This document shows, piece by piece, positions 13,259 to 20,969 of a stretch of DNA of 33,231 bases; positions within the stretch are counted from its first letter, which is position 1, and each line of letters starts with the position of its first letter. A program made the translations under genes and the position numbers. Source of the stretch: Chitinophagales bacterium (GTDB lineage Bacteria; Bacteroidota; Bacteroidia; Chitinophagales; LD1); contig JBKJJB010000375.1 of the NCBI GenBank assembly GCA_046598235.1, positions 1-33,231 of the forward strand, written 5' to 3'. The notes beneath the pieces are model-generated. The model made no database searches, had not been told where the DNA came from, and worked only from the letters and a program-made list of their open reading frames with translations.

Positions 13259-14275
13259 TTAGAATTTACGTTGACGAAGTATTATCCATATAACCACAGG
13301 TGCACCCAAAAGTGATGTAATAGCATTTATGGGCAAAATATTGTCAGAGCCTGGTGTAGATGCAATTACATTACACAGACCACAAATAACTGCTCCAATT
13401 ACCGCACAAGCAGGAATCAAAATTTTATGATCTGCTGTTTTAAATATAGCTCGTGAAAGATGCGGCACCGCCAATCCAACAAACCCAATTGGTCCGCAAA
13501 AAGCCGTTACACTTCCCGCTAAAATACTGGTGCATAAAACAATCAACACTTTTGCGTTGCGAATATTTAAGCCTGAACTTGCTGCATAGGTATCGCCCAG
13601 CAACAAAATGTTTAATGGTTTAGAAAGGAAAAAGGAAAATACAATTCCTATTAGCACCACCAGTGTGAGATAAAAGACCTGATTCAAATCAACATAACGG
13701 AAACTGCCGAAAGTCCAAAGCACATAATTCTTCAATGCTTCATTGCTGCTGAACGACTGCATAATTTCAATCATGGCACTAATTCCTCCACCAATCATTA
13801 AACCAATAATAAGAATAGCTACTACATCGTTCAAGCGATAAGAAACAAGAAAGTTGATAAAAAAAATAAGCACAGCACCGGCTGCTGCTGCAAGAATAAT
13901 ACTCCAACTACTCAACAAATGAATTTCGTGAATACCGAAAGCAGAAGCTGCTAAAATAAATATGGCTACACCCAAACTTGCACCGGCACTAATGCCTAGC
14001 ACATAAGGTCCTGCAATTGGGTTGCGAAACATGGTTTGCATTTGCAAACCACTTACTGATAAGCCTGCACCAGCAAGCAGAGCTGCAAGCGCAGCAGGCA
14101 AGCGCGATTCCAAAATAATGTTTCGCCATGCTTCATTGCCCATATTGTTTCCTGCCAGAATATTCAGCACTTCTGAACAAGAAATAGAAACAGAACCAAG
14201 AAGTAGTTGCAAGAAAAATACAACCACAGTCAGAATTGAGAAAGAAGAAAACAGTATAATATTTCTACTGCTCAT
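13259..14275 (-). CDS. btuC: FecCD-family ABC permease (BtuC-like)
   Basis: 338-aa polytopic hydrophobic protein with FecCD-like strings (RNPIAGPYVLGISAGASLG, LLGAPVVIWIIL). Its start overlaps the upstream stop as ATGA (14272-14275). Confidence 0.85.
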   Translation of the reverse strand: MSSRNIILFSSFSILTVVVFFLQLLLGSVSISCSEVLNILAGNNMGNEAWRNIILESRLPAALAALLAGAGLSVSGLQMQTMFRNPIAGPYVLGISAGASLGVAIFILAASAFGIHEIHLLSSWSIILAAAAGAVLIFFINFLVSYRLNDVVAILIIGLMIGGGISAMIEIMQSFSSNEALKNYVLWTFGSFRYVDLNQVFYLTLVVLIGIVFSFFLSKPLNILLLGDTYAASSGLNIRNAKVLIVLCTSILAGSVTAFCGPIGFVGLAVPHLSRAIFKTADHKILIPACAVIGAVICGLCNVIASTPGSDNILPINAITSLLGAPVVIWIILRQRKF

Positions 14276-15438
14276 TTTAGTTTTCGGTAGTAATACAGCT
14301 CATGATTAGGCAATAGTTCGGGATGGAAAATAAAAATCAAATCAGCCAACACCACATCGGGATTCAATGCACCGGTTTCCCAAAAATCAAAACCTCCGCT
14401 TGGTGTGTTACGTTTATCGTTATTGAAAATACTTGCAGTTTTGTAGGCATTAAAAAAAGTGTTCTTCTTATCTGCCGCTTTTATTTCGGTGAGCGAACGG
14501 GCAAAACCATTGCACAACCAAATATCAGCATCAGCCGCTTTGGCATATACGGCTTCATAATCTAAATTCAGATTTAAACCATTGGTCGCCTTTGCATCCT
14601 TCCACAAAAAATCGCCACCGGCATCGGCAATTAACTTTGCCATATAGTTTTCGCCACAGGGCATATACCATATCTCTTTAAAAGGAAGGTTGGAAAACAC
14701 CGTTGGCTTGCTTAAAACGCCTTTTAATTTATCCTTTAGCGACAAATAGTTTTTCTCTACATCCTGAAAAATGCTATCCGCTTCAAATTCCTTATCATAA
14801 AAAGCAGCAGTAAATTTTATCCATTCAGCACGCGCCAAAGGTTCTTGCTCCATATAGTCCAAGTTCAAAACTGACTTAATATGAAGCGAGTTCAACTTCT
14901 TTTTCATTTTATCGCCACCATCCCAATCGCCCGATGTAAAAACAAAAGATGGATTTAACTCCACCATCTTTTCATAATTCAATTCATTGCTTCCTACATT
15001 AGCAATTTGATTCTGTTTCACTTTAGCTACTACATCCGTATCATAAATCAAATCTACATTCGCTACTCCACAAATTGAATCAACCAAACCCAAACGAGTA
15101 AGAGTAGCAATGTGATTAGTAGAAATACAAATTATTTTCCTGATCGGTGTATCAAGCAAAAGCGCATCGACAAAATCAACCGGTGCAGGCTTACCTTTCT
15201 GTACTAAAATGTATTGCGCAAATACTTTTGAACTATCTCTCCAATCCTTTACAGTTATAACTTTAAAGCTGTTGTAGTAATCAACCGAAAACCCTTTGGC
15301 ATATTTTATCAGCAGCGAAGTATCTTTAATGCAATGAGTGGTGTGTTGCTCTTTAGTCTGGGTTTTGCTTCTGCATGACCATTGACCAATGACCAATGAC
15401 AATAAAAGGCAAACTACCGCCAAATGTTTCCTAATCAT
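14272..15438 (-). CDS. btuF: Periplasmic-binding-protein type 2 substrate-binding lipoprotein (BtuF-like)
   Basis: The internal ATG at 15438 gives a lipoprotein signal, MIRKHLAVVCLLLSLVIGQWSC. The body resembles Peripla_BP_2 (RKIICISTNHIATLTRLGL..., PSFVFTSGDW). The listed 15546 start would overlap the upstream gene by >100 nt. With 15438 the overlap is 8 nt. Confidence 0.8.
   Translation of the reverse strand: MIRKHLAVVCLLLSLVIGQWSCRSKTQTKEQHTTHCIKDTSLLIKYAKGFSVDYYNSFKVITVKDWRDSSKVFAQYILVQKGKPAPVDFVDALLLDTPIRKIICISTNHIATLTRLGLVDSICGVANVDLIYDTDVVAKVKQNQIANVGSNELNYEKMVELNPSFVFTSGDWDGGDKMKKKLNSLHIKSVLNLDYMEQEPLARAEWIKFTAAFYDKEFEADSIFQDVEKNYLSLKDKLKGVLSKPTVFSNLPFKEIWYMPCGENYMAKLIADAGGDFLWKDAKATNGLNLNLDYEAVYAKAADADIWLCNGFARSLTEIKAADKKNTFFNAYKTASIFNNDKRNTPSGGFDFWETGALNPDVVLADLIFIFHPELLPNHELYYYRKLK
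15375..15402. repeat. Imperfect heptanucleotide tandem array (4 units) inside the BtuF-like signal-peptide coding region
   Basis: Plus strand: ATGACCA TTGACCA ATGACCA ATGACAA. The coding strand reads TTGTCATTGGTCATTGGTCAATGGTCAT and encodes LSLVIGQWS. Confidence 0.85.
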
Positions 15439-16468
15439 GATTAAAAGCAAAGTTGCCAGAAATAATTCCGGCTGTGAAAGAATGAAGTAATATTCCGTTT
15501 TTGTTGTAACGGTAAATACGCGATTGCTGAACAAAGTCAAGTGCATCGCTTACATAAACATCACCGGTTATTTGATCAACACCTGTAGCATAAATACTTG
15601 ATGCAGTTGAGCGTATATAAGGCCAACCAGGAAATTGAAAATTATCTACACCATAAACGTCTTTTCCTAAAACATACCACACCATTCCGCGTGTTGCGTC
15701 TATTTGTAACCTAGAAGGATGGTCAACAATCTGGTTAAATGAATAATTGAAAAGCAGATTAAAATTTCTATCAAAAACTTTAATAGCAGCTGTGGTTGCG
15801 GAGGCACTATCTGAACTAGTTAAAATCCAAACATATTTGTTGGAATCAACTGCAATACCTTCTGCATCTCCGGCAAATTCTTTCTTATCAATATAGGTAT
15901 TATCGCTTATCCTGATTCTATACAAAGCACCCTTAGCAGAAGGATTTGAATAGATTTTCTTCCCTTCAACAAAAACATATTCACCTGCTTGAACTAAATG
16001 TTCTGTATACTGAGGTATAGAAATTTCAGTTTTCAAATTACCTGTTAAATAATTGACAACATAAATTTTGTTAGAATAAAGTTCAGTAACATAAGCAATA
16101 CTATCACTAACAGGGAGAATGTATCTTGGCGAAGAGCCGTTAATCGTTATCGTTCTTATCCTTTGAAACGATGGAAGTTTAACCACTTCTATTTTTGCAG
16201 AATTATTAATCACCACAAAAGCAATAGAATCCTTAATGAACATGCTTTGCGCTACATCGCCCAACGAATAACCATTTGCAGATTGAAACAAATTATTCGT
16301 TACTGCATTTGTATTCGGGTCATAAAAAGAAACTTCGCCATTGCCGAAATTGAAATTGCCTTCATTGATAATGTAGACACCTTTACCCGTAGGCAAATCG
16401 GGAGTTTTGTCTTTATGGCAAGAAGAAATGAAAGCGATAAGAATTAAGAGTAAGTAATTTCCTTTCAT
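15431..16468 (-). CDS. Surface lipoprotein, YncE/DUF5074-like beta-propeller (BtuG-like candidate by context)
   Basis: Lipoprotein signal MKGNYLLLILIAFISSC. GVYIINEGNFNFGNGEVSFYDPNTN and repeated blade-like segments (IYVVNYLTGNL, VWILTS, VWYVLG, VYVSDA). It sits directly downstream of the TonB-dependent receptor with a 1-nt overlap. Confidence 0.7.
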   Translation of the reverse strand: MKGNYLLLILIAFISSCHKDKTPDLPTGKGVYIINEGNFNFGNGEVSFYDPNTNAVTNNLFQSANGYSLGDVAQSMFIKDSIAFVVINNSAKIEVVKLPSFQRIRTITINGSSPRYILPVSDSIAYVTELYSNKIYVVNYLTGNLKTEISIPQYTEHLVQAGEYVFVEGKKIYSNPSAKGALYRIRISDNTYIDKKEFAGDAEGIAVDSNKYVWILTSSDSASATTAAIKVFDRNFNLLFNYSFNQIVDHPSRLQIDATRGMVWYVLGKDVYGVDNFQFPGWPYIRSTASSIYATGVDQITGDVYVSDALDFVQQSRIYRYNKNGILLHSFTAGIISGNFAFNHD

Positions 16469-18327
16469 CAGCTTAGTTTAAATCGAATTGTTCCTTCAAA
16501 ATTTCTTCCGGGCATTGGACGTTGCGCTACGTTCTGATACTGTTTATCCGTCAAATTATTTACACGAAACGACAACCCGATTTCATATTTATGGTTAATT
16601 ATAAAATCTTTCCCTGCTTCTAAATCTAACAGGTAATATCCTTTCAGATTTTGGGTATTATCGGTAGTAATAAAAACCGCATCGGTAAAAGTATTTATAG
16701 CATTCAAATAAAATCGTTTGTATTCAAAGTGAACGCTCGCGTTTGTCAAATGCAGCGGCACGTATATCAATTGCTTATTCTTGGATTGGTCGAAAGGCGA
16801 AAGTGCATCAAGATTGGTGGCTCGTGTGTAAGCATAGTTACAGGATAAACGGAAAATAAAATCGCGATTAGATGGAGTTTGAAATGAAGCATAAATTTCT
16901 GCTCCTCTCGTTAGCACACGTTTTACATTTTGCGGCTCCCAGTAAGTTCCATTATTAATCCACTGAATCCAATTAGTGATGTATTTGCAAAATCCTGTAG
17001 CTTTAAAAGTAAAGCGACTTTGATAATTGTAGCGCGCAGTTACCTCTCCATCCCAACTCTTCTCTGTTATTAAATCACGATTGCCGCCCGGCACCCAATA
17101 CAAATCGTTGAGTGTAGGAAATCTGAAATTGCGCGATGCACTAACTAAAAACATCAAGTAATGTTCTTGGTTGATAATTTTATAATACCGGAATGAAAGT
17201 GCCGGAGAAAAAGGCGAAAAGGTTTTATCGTAAATACTTTCACGCAACTTCAGTTGAACTAGAATTTCCTTTATTGGTTCATACTTTACGTCTGCTGAAA
17301 GTTTTCCAATATGTCTGCCTCTGATAATTTGATACGAAGGAACTATAGCTCTTTCAAAATCGTAACCTGCTCCAATATTTACCGAGAACTTATTAATGCT
17401 ATCGTAAGTAAGCGAAAAACTATTTCTGAACGCCTGCATAATAGATTTTTCGTTCAAATAAATTTCGGGATTCTTATAGTGAATTACATCCTGCAAAAAC
17501 GCAGAAGTAAATTCTGTCGTCAGCTTTCTAAAATTTCCCTTCCAAAAAAGCGAAGTGCGCATAGAGTAATCATCCTGCACTTCTTTGCTGTAAGGCTTGC
17601 TAATGATTGGTGGAATTTGTCGCTGCGCATCGCTTAACCAAAAATTAAAGTGTAGCGAATTATTTTGATTAACTCTCGCACTAAACTGTTGCATAAAATG
17701 TAACATCTGTACTTTAGCATTCGTCAATTTCTCTTTTGCGTTTCCTGGCTTGTAAGTGTTTACAAAAGAATAATCGTTATCGCTCTGCATATAGCTGATT
17801 CTTGTAGTCCCGAAAATTTTTCCATTTCCAAAACCGGCTTTACCAAAAGTGCGAAGTGTATTAAAACTTCCGTAAGTAATAAACGCTTCAAACATAAACA
17901 TCGAATCAACGGTTGTTCCATTATTGATATTCAGCGAGCCTCCGATATTACCTGATTGCGAAGTGCCATTTACCTGAACTTGATCGCTCATTCCCATATT
18001 AAACAACGAAGCATCTACCTGGCCAAGAGAAGGAGAATTCAATTTTACTCCATTCCATAAAATATCGGTTTGTGCTGCGCTTGTACCACGAAAAGCAATA
18101 GAAGCTAGTTGACCATTCCCGTAATTCTTGATATAGATACCCGTGTTTTCACGCAATGCATCATTCAGATTTTTTGATGGAGCAATGGAGTAAATAATCT
18201 TTGCCTTCAAAATAGTTGTAGAGGAAATTTTTTCTACTTGTGGTAAAGTATAAACGCTATCTATTTTTAGCTGTGCATTCGACAAGGCAAACAACAACAG
18301 CAACAGATATGTTAGCGCACATTTCAT
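16468..18327 (-). CDS. btuB: TonB-dependent outer-membrane receptor (BtuB-like by size and context)
   Basis: Signal peptide, then plug-domain strings NLNDALRENTGIYIKNYGNGQLASIAFRGTSAAQTDILWNGVKLNSP. Barrel with C-terminal ...PMPGRNFEGTIRFKLS. 619 aa. It is downstream of a cobalamin riboswitch. ATGA overlap with the upstream gene. Confidence 0.85.
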   Translation of the reverse strand: MKCALTYLLLLLFALSNAQLKIDSVYTLPQVEKISSTTILKAKIIYSIAPSKNLNDALRENTGIYIKNYGNGQLASIAFRGTSAAQTDILWNGVKLNSPSLGQVDASLFNMGMSDQVQVNGTSQSGNIGGSLNINNGTTVDSMFMFEAFITYGSFNTLRTFGKAGFGNGKIFGTTRISYMQSDNDYSFVNTYKPGNAKEKLTNAKVQMLHFMQQFSARVNQNNSLHFNFWLSDAQRQIPPIISKPYSKEVQDDYSMRTSLFWKGNFRKLTTEFTSAFLQDVIHYKNPEIYLNEKSIMQAFRNSFSLTYDSINKFSVNIGAGYDFERAIVPSYQIIRGRHIGKLSADVKYEPIKEILVQLKLRESIYDKTFSPFSPALSFRYYKIINQEHYLMFLVSASRNFRFPTLNDLYWVPGGNRDLITEKSWDGEVTARYNYQSRFTFKATGFCKYITNWIQWINNGTYWEPQNVKRVLTRGAEIYASFQTPSNRDFIFRLSCNYAYTRATNLDALSPFDQSKNKQLIYVPLHLTNASVHFEYKRFYLNAINTFTDAVFITTDNTQNLKGYYLLDLEAGKDFIINHKYEIGLSFRVNNLTDKQYQNVAQRPMPGRNFEGTIRFKLS

Positions 18328-19319
18328 TCAACAACTAACTTCGTTACGAGCGATTCTACTTTTAGAAAATAAATTCCTTTAGGGAAGTTGACAGTTGACA
18401 GTTGACAGTTGACAGTTGAAATCCCCATTTCATGTACCAATCTTCCACTAAAATCAAAAGCTTTCAGTCTGCTTCCAACCGACTCTTCATTAACAGCTAT
18501 CTGAACTTCGCTGCCAACTGACGGATTTGGGAAAGTTCGTAATTCGTAATTCGTAATTCGCAATTCCTCAACTGCTGTAGTACTAACCTGATTGATAACT
18601 CCCACTGCATCTAAATCGAAACCGCTTGAAGCAAATGCTGTTGGGTACGGGTCATTTATCTTTTGCCCAAATTGGTCATGTGTTGCATATTGATTACCGA
18701 TAGAACCAACTACATCTATTAAGCGCACATGCGTAATGTTGTTTACATCTATCCCTGCTTCATTTTTCAATTCTTCTAAATCGAAAGGAGTGCCGAAGCC
18801 GGAAACATATTTGCCTGCCAGATTATTTACCAGAGAGCAATCTACTCCTGTCATTGGAATCTGCATAGTATCCTGAATATTTGAAGTGGCAGGGAAACGG
18901 AAGAAATTGATTCCATCACTGCTTACTTCTACAAAAGCAAACTCAAGAAATGCTAAAGGGCTTTGTGTATAAAATCCGTTTTCGAAAACAGCAAAGTCGA
19001 AACCTAGTCCATTATAAATTGGATTTTGAAAAGCGAGTGTGGCAACACCGCTATCACCTAAACTAACTACTCCGTTTTGCCCTGCCATACCAATGGCAGA
19101 GTTTGCATTACCCACCGTTGTATACCCGGAATCAGGCACAGCAATATCCATATACCCGCGCTGAATTACACAACCGGTTGCCCAAGCCACAAAAGCAGAA
19201 CTATCTTTTTCCATGGCTGTTGTTCCCATCACATTTGCCGCAGGTGCAAATTGCGCGTCTGCTAAGTTTATTAGTTGTAGAGAAACCAGCAGTAGAAAAA
19301 TATTTTTCATGAAACTCAT
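18324..19319 (-). CDS. Secreted protein of unknown function with a T9SS type-A C-terminal sorting domain
   Basis: Signal peptide MSFMKNIFLLLVSLQLINLADAQ. Conserved-looking core DFAVFENGF...FLEFAFVEVSSDGINFFRFP...NLAGKY...GTPFDLEEL...VRLIDVVG. CTD TFPNPSVGSEVQIAV...FPKGIYFLKVESLVTKLVVE. It is the second gene of the riboswitch operon. Confidence 0.8.
   Translation of the reverse strand: MSFMKNIFLLLVSLQLINLADAQFAPAANVMGTTAMEKDSSAFVAWATGCVIQRGYMDIAVPDSGYTTVGNANSAIGMAGQNGVVSLGDSGVATLAFQNPIYNGLGFDFAVFENGFYTQSPLAFLEFAFVEVSSDGINFFRFPATSNIQDTMQIPMTGVDCSLVNNLAGKYVSGFGTPFDLEELKNEAGIDVNNITHVRLIDVVGSIGNQYATHDQFGQKINDPYPTAFASSGFDLDAVGVINQVSTTAVEELRITNYELRTFPNPSVGSEVQIAVNEESVGSRLKAFDFSGRLVHEMGISTVNCQLSTVNFPKGIYFLKVESLVTKLVVE
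18387..18419. repeat. Perfect heptanucleotide tandem array, GTTGACA x4.7, inside a T9SS CTD coding region
   Basis: GTTGACA GTTGACA GTTGACA GTTGACA GTTGA. The coding strand translates to STVNCQLSTVN, immediately before FPKGIYFLKV. Confidence 0.95.
18536..18566. repeat. Heptanucleotide tandem array, TTCGTAA x3 plus TTCGCAA plus TTC, at the start of the same T9SS CTD
   Basis: TTCGTAA TTCGTAA TTCGTAA TTCGCAA TTC. The coding strand translates to (E)LRITNYELR, immediately before TFPNPS. Confidence 0.95.
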
Positions 19320-19370: not shown

Positions 19371-20621
19371 TTATTGTTTCACAATTTTCTTTACCAAAGT
19401 TCCGTTCAGCGAACTCATTTTCACAAAGTAAATTCCTAATGAAAGTTCTTCCGTATTTAACTCAAGTGTATTGCTTTCAATAGCAGAAATTGTCTTCACT
19501 AAAATTCCTGTAACATCAAACAAATCAACTTGATTGATTACAGCCGATGAACGAATAGATATGTTATTGCTAAACGGATTTGGAAAAACCTTTACAGCAA
19601 CATCTGCAATTTCATCAAGCCCTGTAACGCCTGTTACATTTATATAAACAACTGCGGTATCGCTTGCGCCTAAGGCATCGTAAACACGATACACTAAAGA
19701 ATCTGTAGCAACAAGTCCAATAGCTGGCGTGTAATGAATTTCATTATTCTCAACCGTAGCCATAGCACCCGGAATAAGTGGTGCACTCAATAATTCAACA
19801 GTATAAGGATTGGCAATTAAACCGGCATCGTTGGCAAGCACGGCAATCACCGTGTCGTTTAAGTAGGTAGTAGTTACAGCATCATCGTTAGCTGTTGGTT
19901 GCGCATAAGCAGTATCGCCTGTAGTGAAATTGTCCATCGCGAAATAAGCCGGTGTATTCATGTAACCGAAAGCAGTGTCAGATGAAGTAAGTTGAAAAAT
20001 AATGCTATCCACATCACCCAGAGGCTGCAAATCAAACCAAGTCCAGTCGCTAAGCATATAATCCTGTGTACTATCAGCCGAACGAAAATCTGCAAGGAAA
20101 AAGTCTACTGCCTGTTGTTTCATTGCTCCGTTGAGCCATCCCATAGCACGCAAACGAAACCAATCCGGATCGGCACTGGTAGCGCCTCCAAATTTCTTAG
20201 CAAATTGATCTCCGTTTTTCATGCTCAGATATGCATAGGTGGTATTGGTTACATAAAAGCCTTTTACCAATTTACCCGATGCATTACCAGTTAATCGAAT
20301 TTTCGCATTGCCGTATTCATCGGCAACAGCGTACTGTTCTGAACCGTTATAGCCGCTTGCAGTGATAGCTGCGTATTGATTACCGAAACCAGCGGTCGTG
20401 CTATCCTTCTTATTCGAGTATGTAAAACCACTCCACGAAGCCCACGCGGTGTTGTAATCGTTTACAAAATTGGCATTGCCACTATTGAAGCCACCACTTA
20501 AATCGCTGCCATTCCAAAAGGTGTCGGTAGCAAGAGGAAGGTCTTCGAATGTAGAAACTGTTTGAGAGAAAAGAAAACTTGCCATAAGTGTGGCACACAT
20601 GAATAGGTTGAATTTTTTCAT
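19371..20621 (-). CDS. DUF4465-like secreted protein with a cadherin/Ig-like segment and a T9SS type-A CTD (BtuH-like candidate by context)
   Basis: Signal MKKFNLFMCATLMASFLFSQ. STFEDLPLATDTFWNGSDLSGGFNSGNANFVNDYNTAWASWSGFTYSNKKD...NQYAAI...GFYVTNTTYAYLSMKNGDQFAKKFGG...DWFRL matches my recollection of DUF4465. PTANDDAVTT...VLANDAG is a cadherin-like string. CTD VFPNPFSNNISI...LGIYFVKM...KKIVKQ. It is the first gene after the riboswitch. Confidence 0.8.
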   Translation of the reverse strand: MKKFNLFMCATLMASFLFSQTVSTFEDLPLATDTFWNGSDLSGGFNSGNANFVNDYNTAWASWSGFTYSNKKDSTTAGFGNQYAAITASGYNGSEQYAVADEYGNAKIRLTGNASGKLVKGFYVTNTTYAYLSMKNGDQFAKKFGGATSADPDWFRLRAMGWLNGAMKQQAVDFFLADFRSADSTQDYMLSDWTWFDLQPLGDVDSIIFQLTSSDTAFGYMNTPAYFAMDNFTTGDTAYAQPTANDDAVTTTYLNDTVIAVLANDAGLIANPYTVELLSAPLIPGAMATVENNEIHYTPAIGLVATDSLVYRVYDALGASDTAVVYINVTGVTGLDEIADVAVKVFPNPFSNNISIRSSAVINQVDLFDVTGILVKTISAIESNTLELNTEELSLGIYFVKMSSLNGTLVKKIVKQ

Positions 20622-20699: not shown

Positions 20700-20885
20700 G
20701 TTCTCCGCCTTTCTTCCCGAAAGCTTTTGACTAATGTGCCGAAGGCAGGTCTTCTGGTTTACTCTGTTTCTATCGCCTTCCCGGTTTTTACACCAGTGGC
20801 TTTGTGAGATAGAAACTTTTAAAGAGCTTACAGCAGCGGGTACTACTCAGGATTTTCACCTGATTCCCTATTGGACTATTCATTG
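20700..20885 (-). promoter_or_regulatory. Cobalamin (B12) riboswitch
   Basis: The minus strand reads, in order: AATAGGGAATCAGGTGAAAATCCTGAGTAGTACCCGCTGCTGTAAGC ... AGCCACTGGTGTAAAAACCGGGAAGGCG ... AAACCAGAAGACCTGCC (B12 box, plus-strand 20744-20757). These are the conserved cores of the cobalamin aptamer, upstream of a TonB-receptor/BtuFCD operon. The ends are approximate. Confidence 0.9.
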
Positions 20886-20969
20886 TAACATGAAATTGTC
20901 ACCTTTAGCGTTGCAAATAGAATCATTTATTTTGTAATTACTAAAAATATTTTTTGAACCTTGCGTTTG

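Follow-up and report, generated by a model that had tools for sequence, protein, structure and literature searches.

Two in-frame heptanucleotide arrays in a type IX sorting domain of a Chitinophagales bacterium probably belong to a lineage-wide population of tolerated, re-homogenised repeats

More than 30 years after they became known, there is no agreed mechanism or function for heptanucleotide tandem repeats of the kinds called short tandemly repeated repetitive (STRR) sequences and long simple sequence repeats (LSSR). The STRR heptamers are said to have been described in cyanobacteria by Mazel et al. in 1990, and in Neisseria the opa genes carry pentamer repeats within the leader peptide. 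The present work concerns two heptanucleotide arrays in a stretch of 33,231 nucleotides from a Chitinophagales bacterium (contig JBKJJB010000375.1; the whole stretch is called the window below), where both lie in the gene of a 331-aa protein ending in a type A C-terminal domain (CTD) of the type IX secretion system (T9SS). According to what PMC4679880 summarises of Mrazek, Guo and Shah 2007, prokaryotes show an excess of heptanucleotide repeats, LSSR have units of 5-11 nt and are most likely to occur in coding regions when the unit is a multiple of 3, and polymerase slippage is their proposed cause. Direct repeats of TAACTGA occur in Beggiatoaceae, cyanobacteria and a few Bacteroidetes; their reverse orientation would read LSVISYQ, and coding occurrences were treated as rare exceptions (MacGregor 2015, PMC4679880). 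Repeats of 7 bp are also placed upstream of Haemophilus influenzae hmw1A in passages of PMC8262952 and PMC12721329. We consider that both arrays probably belong to a lineage-wide population of STRR/LSSR-type heptamers, tolerated and re-homogenised, rather than forming a local switch.

The two arrays, called A and B (table 1), had been noticed in a sequence-only reading of the window, made without database searches. Tandem Repeats Finder (TRF) and the sequence itself bore out the copy numbers and perfection given there, except that array B starts at 18386 and not at 18387. On the coding strand, array B is (TCAACTG)x4 + TCAACT and encodes S301-F312 (STVNCQLSTVNF), which directly precedes P313-K314-G315-I316-Y317-F318 with the GIYF motif of the CTD. 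Array A reads GAATTGC + (GAATTAC)x3 + GAA; its product, E252-T262 (ELRITNYELRT), is the linker that leads into the first CTD strand and abuts F263-P264-N265-P266. Translation and the profile matches also agreed with the earlier statement that the arrays are read through in frame and bracket the PNP...GIYF core. The CTD matches Pfam PF18962 (Por_Secre_tail) over residues 263-325 with 34 bits (cut-off 27) and TIGR04183 over residues 263-330 of 331 with 31.9 bits (cut-off 23). All of the PNP, GxY and K-L-V-V-E motifs are present, P264, P266, G315 and Y317 are invariant in the homologue alignment, and the PF18962 profile runs across array B without an insertion. AlphaFold, which was confident for the CTD only (pLDDT below 50 in the N-domain), placed seven strands over residues 261-330 with pLDDT 70-90, as a predicted beta-sandwich; N304-S308 of array B fall in a beta-strand (pLDDT ~88-90), and array A falls in the low-confidence linker leading to the first strand. 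The domain is therefore like other T9SS type A CTDs in being an ordinary member above the cut-offs, with the usual motifs and predicted fold. Unlike the usual CTD, it has one strand and the linker before the domain written by heptamer DNA, and the same position is so occupied in at least nine CTDs of the genome.

Perfect lag-7 runs of 27, 18 and 11 bases were found in the window, and no perfect run of 11 bases or more occurs anywhere in it at lags 5, 6, 8 and 9. The longest lag-7 run in 200 first-order Markov simulations of the window was 11 bases, and runs of at least 11 appeared at 0.01 per window. Set against this simulated maximum, the runs of 27 and 18 exclude a chance origin.

The source genome, labelled G000 in the genome comparisons, is a metagenome-assembled genome (MAG) of 2.96 Mb in 452 contigs with 39.8% GC. 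It contains 43 perfect arrays of at least three copies at period 7, against 6, 4, 1 and 1 at periods 5, 6, 8 and 9; TRF gives 202 arrays of at least three copies at period 7, whereas period 6 has 36 and period 8 has 66. Those with a 7-letter consensus (201) fall into 91 unit classes, the largest having 9 members, where random units would give ~179 classes with a largest of ~3. When strand and rotation are chosen, the units share a loose consensus, W-N-N-S-A-A-W, of 5.0 bits, against 4.16 ± 0.09 for shuffled units. Unrelated loci share identical units (TCAGAAA in 5 genes, TCAATTG in 4, TCAGAAT in 3), and the census that the earlier reading had proposed found (GTTGACA)n at 6 loci and (TTCGTAA)n at 5, the arrays as a whole being biased to leaders, signal peptides and CTDs. 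Array length has its mode at 30-33 nt and drops sharply above 37 nt. As in the LSSR summarised in PMC4679880, 7-nt tandem units are thus dispersed genome-wide, in many versions and with period 7 far above its neighbours. As in STRR and TAACTGA repeats, the units are heptamers, some of them shared or near-identical, with a patchy distribution across phyla. The resemblance to cyanobacterial STRR, which the earlier reading had put forward, is supported by the census at the level of a heptamer-repeat class. A third array of the window (table 1) has the unit TGGTCAT/TTGGTCA, which we take to be the cyanobacterial STRR2 unit.

The arrays are far from randomly placed. Fully within open reading frames (ORFs) lie 120 of the 202 (59%), while 65 are intergenic and 17 are partial, overlapping an ORF end; the intergenic share is ~3x that expected from the 10% of the genome that is intergenic. 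Relative to random positions, enrichment reaches 5.2x in 5' leaders, taken as the 80 nt before a start, 5.7-8.2x in CTDs, and 1.5-2.4x over the initial 50 codons; elsewhere in coding sequence arrays are depleted, to 0.4x. The presence of a T9SS is implied by the 119 CTDs of the genome that score above cut-off. Among these 119 CTDs there are 13 arrays where 2.1 are expected (p = 3e-7). Nine of the 13 lie at the site of array B, just before GxY, across several distinct CTD subfamilies, and the other four lie around PNP, as array A does. About 40 further arrays are inside genuine signal peptides. In some of these the translated repeat is the basic n-region (IRNQKSEIRN, RFKVQSSKFKVQS), in others the hydrophobic h-region (LLSIVYCLLS, LSVVCCLLSIV, FLCSLLFAFCS). 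There are also cases where 2-3 adjacent arrays together make up a signal peptide (C401:3224-3294, C244:4716-4819, C246:3946-4032, C360:7407-7487); here the n-region is IRNQKSEIRN, RFKVQSSKFKVQS or RFRISDFGFRI, and the h-region LSVVCCLLSIV, FLCSLLFAFCS or FLWSLVFGLWS. In-frame arrays also occur in the middle of housekeeping enzymes: Ddl, AroB, FolC, MetG (two), ValS, PanC, LipB, HisH, KdsB, an E2 acyltransferase and TrmH. Perfection of the repeats is no lower in essential genes than in sorting signals. Taken together, these placements show that arrays persist only at sites that the product can tolerate: in leaders, in signal peptides (n- and h-regions), in enzyme surface loops and at two fixed CTD positions.

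The sequence-only reading had named, as an alternative to switching, genome-wide heptamers tolerated in loop regions. The ~200 arrays of the census support this alternative, although the arrays are placed position-specifically instead of at random and are not simply decaying. Tolerated genome-wide repeats are a better reading than phase variation. Moreover, in-frame coding heptamers are a difference from the published descriptions of STRR, LSSR and TAACTGA repeats. For STRR and TAACTGA repeats the published accounts give an essentially intergenic location; here, read-through in frame is the rule, essential genes included. Unlike LSSR, 59% of the heptamer arrays are in ORFs, in frame, with a 30-33 nt mode and at fixed structural positions, and they are homogenised across species without a change of length.

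Approximately 20 arrays end 0-16 nt before start codons. These leader arrays are mostly TTAACNA-like, sense-oriented and stop-containing, and the genes behind them are ordinary cytoplasmic ones (ribF, pth, mraY, a uvrD-like gene and others). In this they are like the TAACTGA repeats, for which a role as post-transcriptional regulator sites was proposed in Beggiatoaceae (MacGregor 2015, PMC4679880). Array B ends 58 nt upstream of the ATG of the receptor gene that follows, and with the fivefold enrichment of arrays in leaders one could regard it as an RNA-level or protein-binding element in the mRNA leader of that gene. We judge this very improbable. Arrays A and B differ from the TAACTGA leader layout in being read through in frame, and neither TCAACTG nor GAATTAC resembles the TTAACNA type that prevails among leader arrays. 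The unit at one site differs between species, contrary to what a sequence-specific binder would need. Furthermore, of 10 CTDs with arrays, 6 are not followed within 60 nt by a gene in the same direction; such a follower is found in 4 of the 10, against 24 of 109 CTDs without arrays, a difference that is not significant.

The history of the two sites could be read from orthologues. The protein database gave no second copy from this species, its closest proteins being 81-82% identical, and the metagenome scan gave a single close relative (L163), at 73%. The unit of array B differs among the source genome and its relatives L243, L244-246, L247 and L163 (table 1), while the length and phase of the site are identical in all of them. 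At site A, the 33-nt array of the orthologue in genome G001 is nearly identical, only its 3' edge differing (GAACT vs GAATT). Distant members of the genus (L003, L005-L007, L009, L011) still have arrays at both sites, with the units TTTCAAG, GTTTCAG, ATTTCGR and ATTTTGG at site A and GCAACCN, AATTGTC, GAAACTY, ACTTCCR, AAACTGY and AACTACC at site B. Mean unit identity inside the arrays is 0.77-1.00, and single-base variants of the unit are spread through all units. The synonymous divergence (dS) of the N-domain is 0.7-1.0, near saturation, between the close-relative genomes (0.74-0.98 in L001 vs L243/L244/L247); at such divergence a passive 34-nt tract would have decayed. On these alignments, what both sites display is concerted evolution at constant length. 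The 38-codon CTD core between the arrays (18420-18535) has an amino acid identity of 0.45-0.5 in L001 vs L243/L244/L247, whereas the N-domain reaches 0.9 and the part following array B 0.74-0.84; dS after array B is 0.26-0.39, below the 0.74-0.98 of the N-domain, over only 19 codons. Diversifying selection on the inter-array core was considered and rejected, dN/dS (nonsynonymous to synonymous) of 0.2-0.34 indicating relaxed constraint and not positive selection.

Considering that the unit length is not a multiple of 3, the sequence-only reading had inferred a slipped-strand ON/OFF or localisation switch, perhaps uncoupling translation of the overlapping receptor gene; the overlap is real, the ATG of the receptor sharing bases with the stop of the 331-aa gene (ATGA). 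As a selected contingency locus for T9SS export, such a switch would have several points in common with opa and hmw1A: a unit that is not a multiple of 3 stands in the sorting signal of an exported protein, and a one-unit slip would abolish export. In silico, loss or gain of one unit in array A gave products of 271 or 278 aa, and in array B of 316 or 315 aa. Every one of these four changes truncates the product, before GIYF or PNP, and removes the CTD end (GIYF...KLVVE); changes of ±3 units stay in frame. The accessory protein would therefore lose the end of its CTD through a single ±1-unit slip, and its T9SS export would probably fail; this part of the earlier proposal stands. The enrichment of arrays in the sorting signals of exported proteins is in line with such a locus, as is the fact that perfect arrays at dS 0.7-1.0 imply a misalignment rate well over the point-mutation rate; heptamer tracts upstream of H. 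influenzae hmw1A are, in the passages concerned of PMC8262952, proven phase-variation elements.

Nothing points to use of the arrays as an ON/OFF device: none of 132 genome arrays is OFF and the orthologues are in frame. No OFF alleles and no 7-aa indels at either site were found in 23 protein-aligned homologues, all in frame, and none were found at the 21 loci of genus and close metagenome relatives read as DNA, likewise all in frame, among them 11 genus orthologues and 5 distinct close metagenome relatives. Likewise, the copy-number differences among orthologues that the earlier reading had suggested looking for are absent at both sites between species. When the ORF span was compared with one unit added or removed, 8 of the 132 arrays were flagged, and no genuine frameshift remained. 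Six of the flagged arrays are no frameshifts but precede the start codon of the following gene (uvrD-like, ribF, pth, mraY, C134, C287) by 16 nt or less; the one on C378 is a gene junction, and the one on C306 has short open frames only, with no gene on either side. No CTD truncated at an array was found among the CTD matches of the genome, and partial CTD profile matches, considered as possible frameshifted CTDs, are explained as contig ends or SprB-like repeats. The paired slips A+1/B-1 and A-1/B+1, which might have restored the frame, regained no open frame in silico. In addition, the tracts have just 4.4-4.9 units. Contingency loci thus differ from these arrays, which are short and stable, lack OFF alleles and copy-number differences in orthologues, and occur equally perfect in housekeeping and essential genes; with arrays also in frame in Ddl, AroB, FolC, MetG, ValS and PanC, the class of gene does not fit either. 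The gene comes from a free-living environmental organism and is part of a nutrient-uptake operon regulated by a B12 riboswitch. A dedicated phase-variation switch is not supported, and we consider a selected contingency locus unlikely. The slip risk is regarded as a mutational liability rather than a regulated switch.

Whether the arrays were added to genes or arose within them bears on another alternative, that of a miniature mobile element, in which pre-formed ~32-nt heptamer cassettes would be inserted by a transposase- or reverse-transcriptase-like activity. Identical units at unrelated loci, the restricted vocabulary, uniform array length, species-specific dominant units and patchy phylogenetic distribution would all suit such an element, as would the array of LipB, a net insertion. 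Nevertheless, most arrays replace a segment of equal length. For the 331-aa protein, 96-98 aa follow DLDAVGV where arrays are present; in array-free orthologues this tail is 88-108 aa long (mostly 93-106). CTDs of the ordinary kind, non-periodic and with similar tail lengths, are found in orthologues from other families. The median distance from PNP to GxY in the CTDs of the genome is 49.5 with arrays and 53 without. For AroB, Ddl, FolC, PanC and a metallo-beta-lactamase (MBL) hydrolase, the G000 array corresponds to an equal-length segment in other species that is either non-periodic or periodic with a different unit. PanC has the unit TCAGAAA in G000 and G001, CAGACAA in G007 and AACTCCA in G011. 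Periodicity is also graded: in FolC, lag-7 matches are 8/24 in G011, 12/24 in G022, 19/24 in G001 and 22/24 in G007, and the array is perfect (TRF 100%) in G000, with protein similarity recognisable across the whole series. As judged from these sequence comparisons, most of the arrays examined are not net insertions, LipB being the exception. The graded periodicity and residual similarity to array-free orthologues (FolC, MBL hydrolase, AroB) indicate an origin in situ. No conserved flanks, defined ends, terminal motifs or target duplications were found at the arrays, which begin and stop at any unit phase. Finally, the sole partner tested, genes for the 23S rRNA intervening-sequence (IVS) protein PF05635, is equally present in pattern-negative genomes. 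An inserted element seems to us quite unlikely. The PanC loop carries an array in 4 of 5 genomes, with three unrelated units and with one of the genomes (G011) otherwise array-poor; some protein sites thus seem to be recurrent array hot spots.

The distribution of arrays was searched in 41 genomes with a degenerate three-unit pattern. Matches were obtained in G000, in about ten other members of the genus, mostly its nearest relatives, and in three other families of the order. G011, a complete genome of the same genus, has no period-7 array in a 400-kb sample; because it nevertheless has the PanC array, genomes that appear array-free are array-poor, not empty. A single-contig genome of another family (G034) has 13 period-7 arrays in 400 kb (C1:1400001-1800000, L143-L162), mostly of 30-32 nt, in addition to one of 199 nt and arrays at periods 14, 21, 28 and 42. 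Dominant units are specific to genomes (TCCGAAA in G014, TCAGAAA in G013, TACGAAT in G025, TAGGAAT/TAAGAAT in G028), which suggests a concerted genome-wide change of the unit vocabulary. The PF05635 genes were tried as a determinant of arrays and rejected: they occur in 37 of the 41 genomes, including the pattern-negative G011, and their copy number does not follow the presence of arrays. In G000 several of these genes are flanked by arrays (C387:605-1059, C306:2990-5007, C356:10361-10751, C166:11969-12371); on C387 the flanking arrays resemble inverted copies (AAGAACA... and TCTTGGC...), and C306 carries the longest array of the genome, with 11.3 units.

A technical origin, with repeats collapsed or invented during assembly or polishing of a fragmented MAG, has in its favour the 452 contigs and the clustering of array lengths at 30-36 nt, close to common k-mer sizes. 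It is extremely improbable, in our opinion. All coding arrays are in frame, where arbitrary collapse would break two-thirds of them; arrays at contig ends number 3 against 3.0 expected; length and phase are equal in independent ENA, JGI, Logan and GTDB assemblies; and the single-contig genome of another family has the same 30-32 nt mode.

Returning to tolerated and re-homogenised repeats, the following mechanism could account for them. The arrays would be continually re-homogenised by a length-neutral copying error, one candidate being that the nascent strand briefly misaligns by one unit and then realigns; intra-array gene conversion is an alternative candidate. Length neutrality is proposed in view of the perfect arrays kept by essential genes, in which a frameshifted intermediate would kill the cell. 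The same process could gradually convert a tolerant non-repeat segment to an array, with protein length unchanged. Selection would confine arrays to segments in which only a general character is needed, be it hydrophobicity, charge, or simply a loop or beta-strand of constant length. STVNCQLSTVNF and ELRITNYELRT may then be passengers that fit a CTD strand and a linker. Beyond this, we tentatively raise a wider possibility, one that we would not yet favour over its denial. A templated mutation process specific to the lineage (a Chitinophagales subclade and, patchily, other Bacteroidota) may rewrite tolerant DNA into ~32-nt heptamer arrays of unchanged length and keep them homogenised until synonymous saturation, with 7-nt primer-template misalignment escaping mismatch repair as the likely source. 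Parts of sorting signals (signal-peptide n- and h-regions, a single strand of the T9SS CTD) and enzyme surface loops would then be written by DNA repeats and not by peptide selection, and each array would be a latent frameshift site.

Several points weigh against tolerance with re-homogenisation. The length-neutral step we infer from outcomes. The array in LipB is a net insertion of ~10 aa, and the AroB loop is 25, 31, 38 or 45 aa long, in steps of roughly 7 aa (3 units); length-changing slippage therefore also occurs. Enrichment in the signal peptides and CTDs of exported proteins is also typical of contingency loci. Simple tolerance fails to explain the 30-33 nt mode and the species-specific dominant units. 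Comparison within the same strain was limited to three JGI contigs, 100% identical over 1.3 kb, and the gene calls of the census come from a crude in-house ORF caller.

The 331-aa gene is the second of five in an operon headed by a cobalamin riboswitch (table 1), the order being a DUF4465-Big_9-CTD protein, the 331-aa CTD protein, a BtuB-like receptor, a DUF5074 protein and a BtuF-like protein. Its N-domain belongs to no Pfam family but is conserved among Bacteroidota, where related loci number at least 582. Given the riboswitch and the uptake genes, the 331-aa protein is an accessory of a B12-regulated uptake system. Because both T9SS CTD proteins belong to this riboswitch-headed uptake operon, they are candidate accessories for corrinoid capture at the surface.

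Table 1. Features of the window, leader arrays elsewhere in the source genome, and repeat units at sites A and B in orthologues
Feature	Location	Strand	Basis or content
Array B, (AGTTGAC)x4.9	18386..18419	(-)	TRF period 7, 100% matches; AGTTGAC = rotated GTTGACA
Array A, (TTCGTAA)x4.4	18536..18566	(-)	TRF period 7, 95% matches; TTCGTAA x3, TTCGCAA, TTC
Third array, (TGGTCAT)x3.7	15375..15400	(-)	TRF; encodes LSLVIGQWS in lipoprotein-type signal peptide of BtuF-like protein
331-aa gene	18324..19319	(-)	ORF; signal peptide, conserved N-domain without Pfam family, T9SS type A CTD (residues 263-330)
Cobalamin riboswitch, operon head	20727..20921	(-)	Rfam RF00174, 91.6 bits vs gathering score 31.5
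First operon gene, DUF4465 + Big_9 + T9SS CTD, array-free	19371..20621	(-)	Pfam
TonB-dependent receptor, BtuB-like	16468..18327	(-)	Plug domain; weak TonB-B12 similarity; sequence
DUF5074 protein	15431..16468	(-)	Pfam
Peripla_BP_2 (BtuF-like) binding protein	14272..15546	(-)	Pfam; likely true start at the methionine of MIRKH... (N-terminus)
Leader arrays	C257:1491-1521, C309:7965-7993, C380:2098-2127, C387:1033-1059, C284:6251-6279; also C117, C138, C224, C402		
Site B, own genome			TCAACTG x4 + TCAACTT
Site B, L243			TCAACTT x5, perfect
Site B, L244-246			ACAACTG + TCAACTG x3 + TCAACTT
Site B, L247			CCAACTG, CCAATTG, CCAACTG x2, CCAACTT
Site B, L163			TCAATAC x4
Site A units			GAATTAC (own genome, G001), GAAATAC (L163, L243), RAGTTAC (L244)

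The in-frame position of the arrays at homologous sites in many species makes their turnover directly readable, with units that shift in concert while length and phase stay fixed. Equal-length segments in array-free orthologues point to length-neutral templated homogenisation and not to classical expansion and contraction, and the locus offers a clean natural system for the origin and maintenance of heptamer arrays. Annotators who meet peptides such as STVNCQLSTVN, ELRITNYELR, EIRNQKSEIRN and LLSIVYCLLS in proteins of Bacteroidota should take them for repeat read-through rather than motifs. Pieces of signal peptides and T9SS CTDs appear to be shaped by a mutational process, which bears on the real requirements of those signals. 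Should ±1-unit slips prove frequent, a large number of the proteins that these bacteria export would contain inherent sites for the knock-out of their own secretion.

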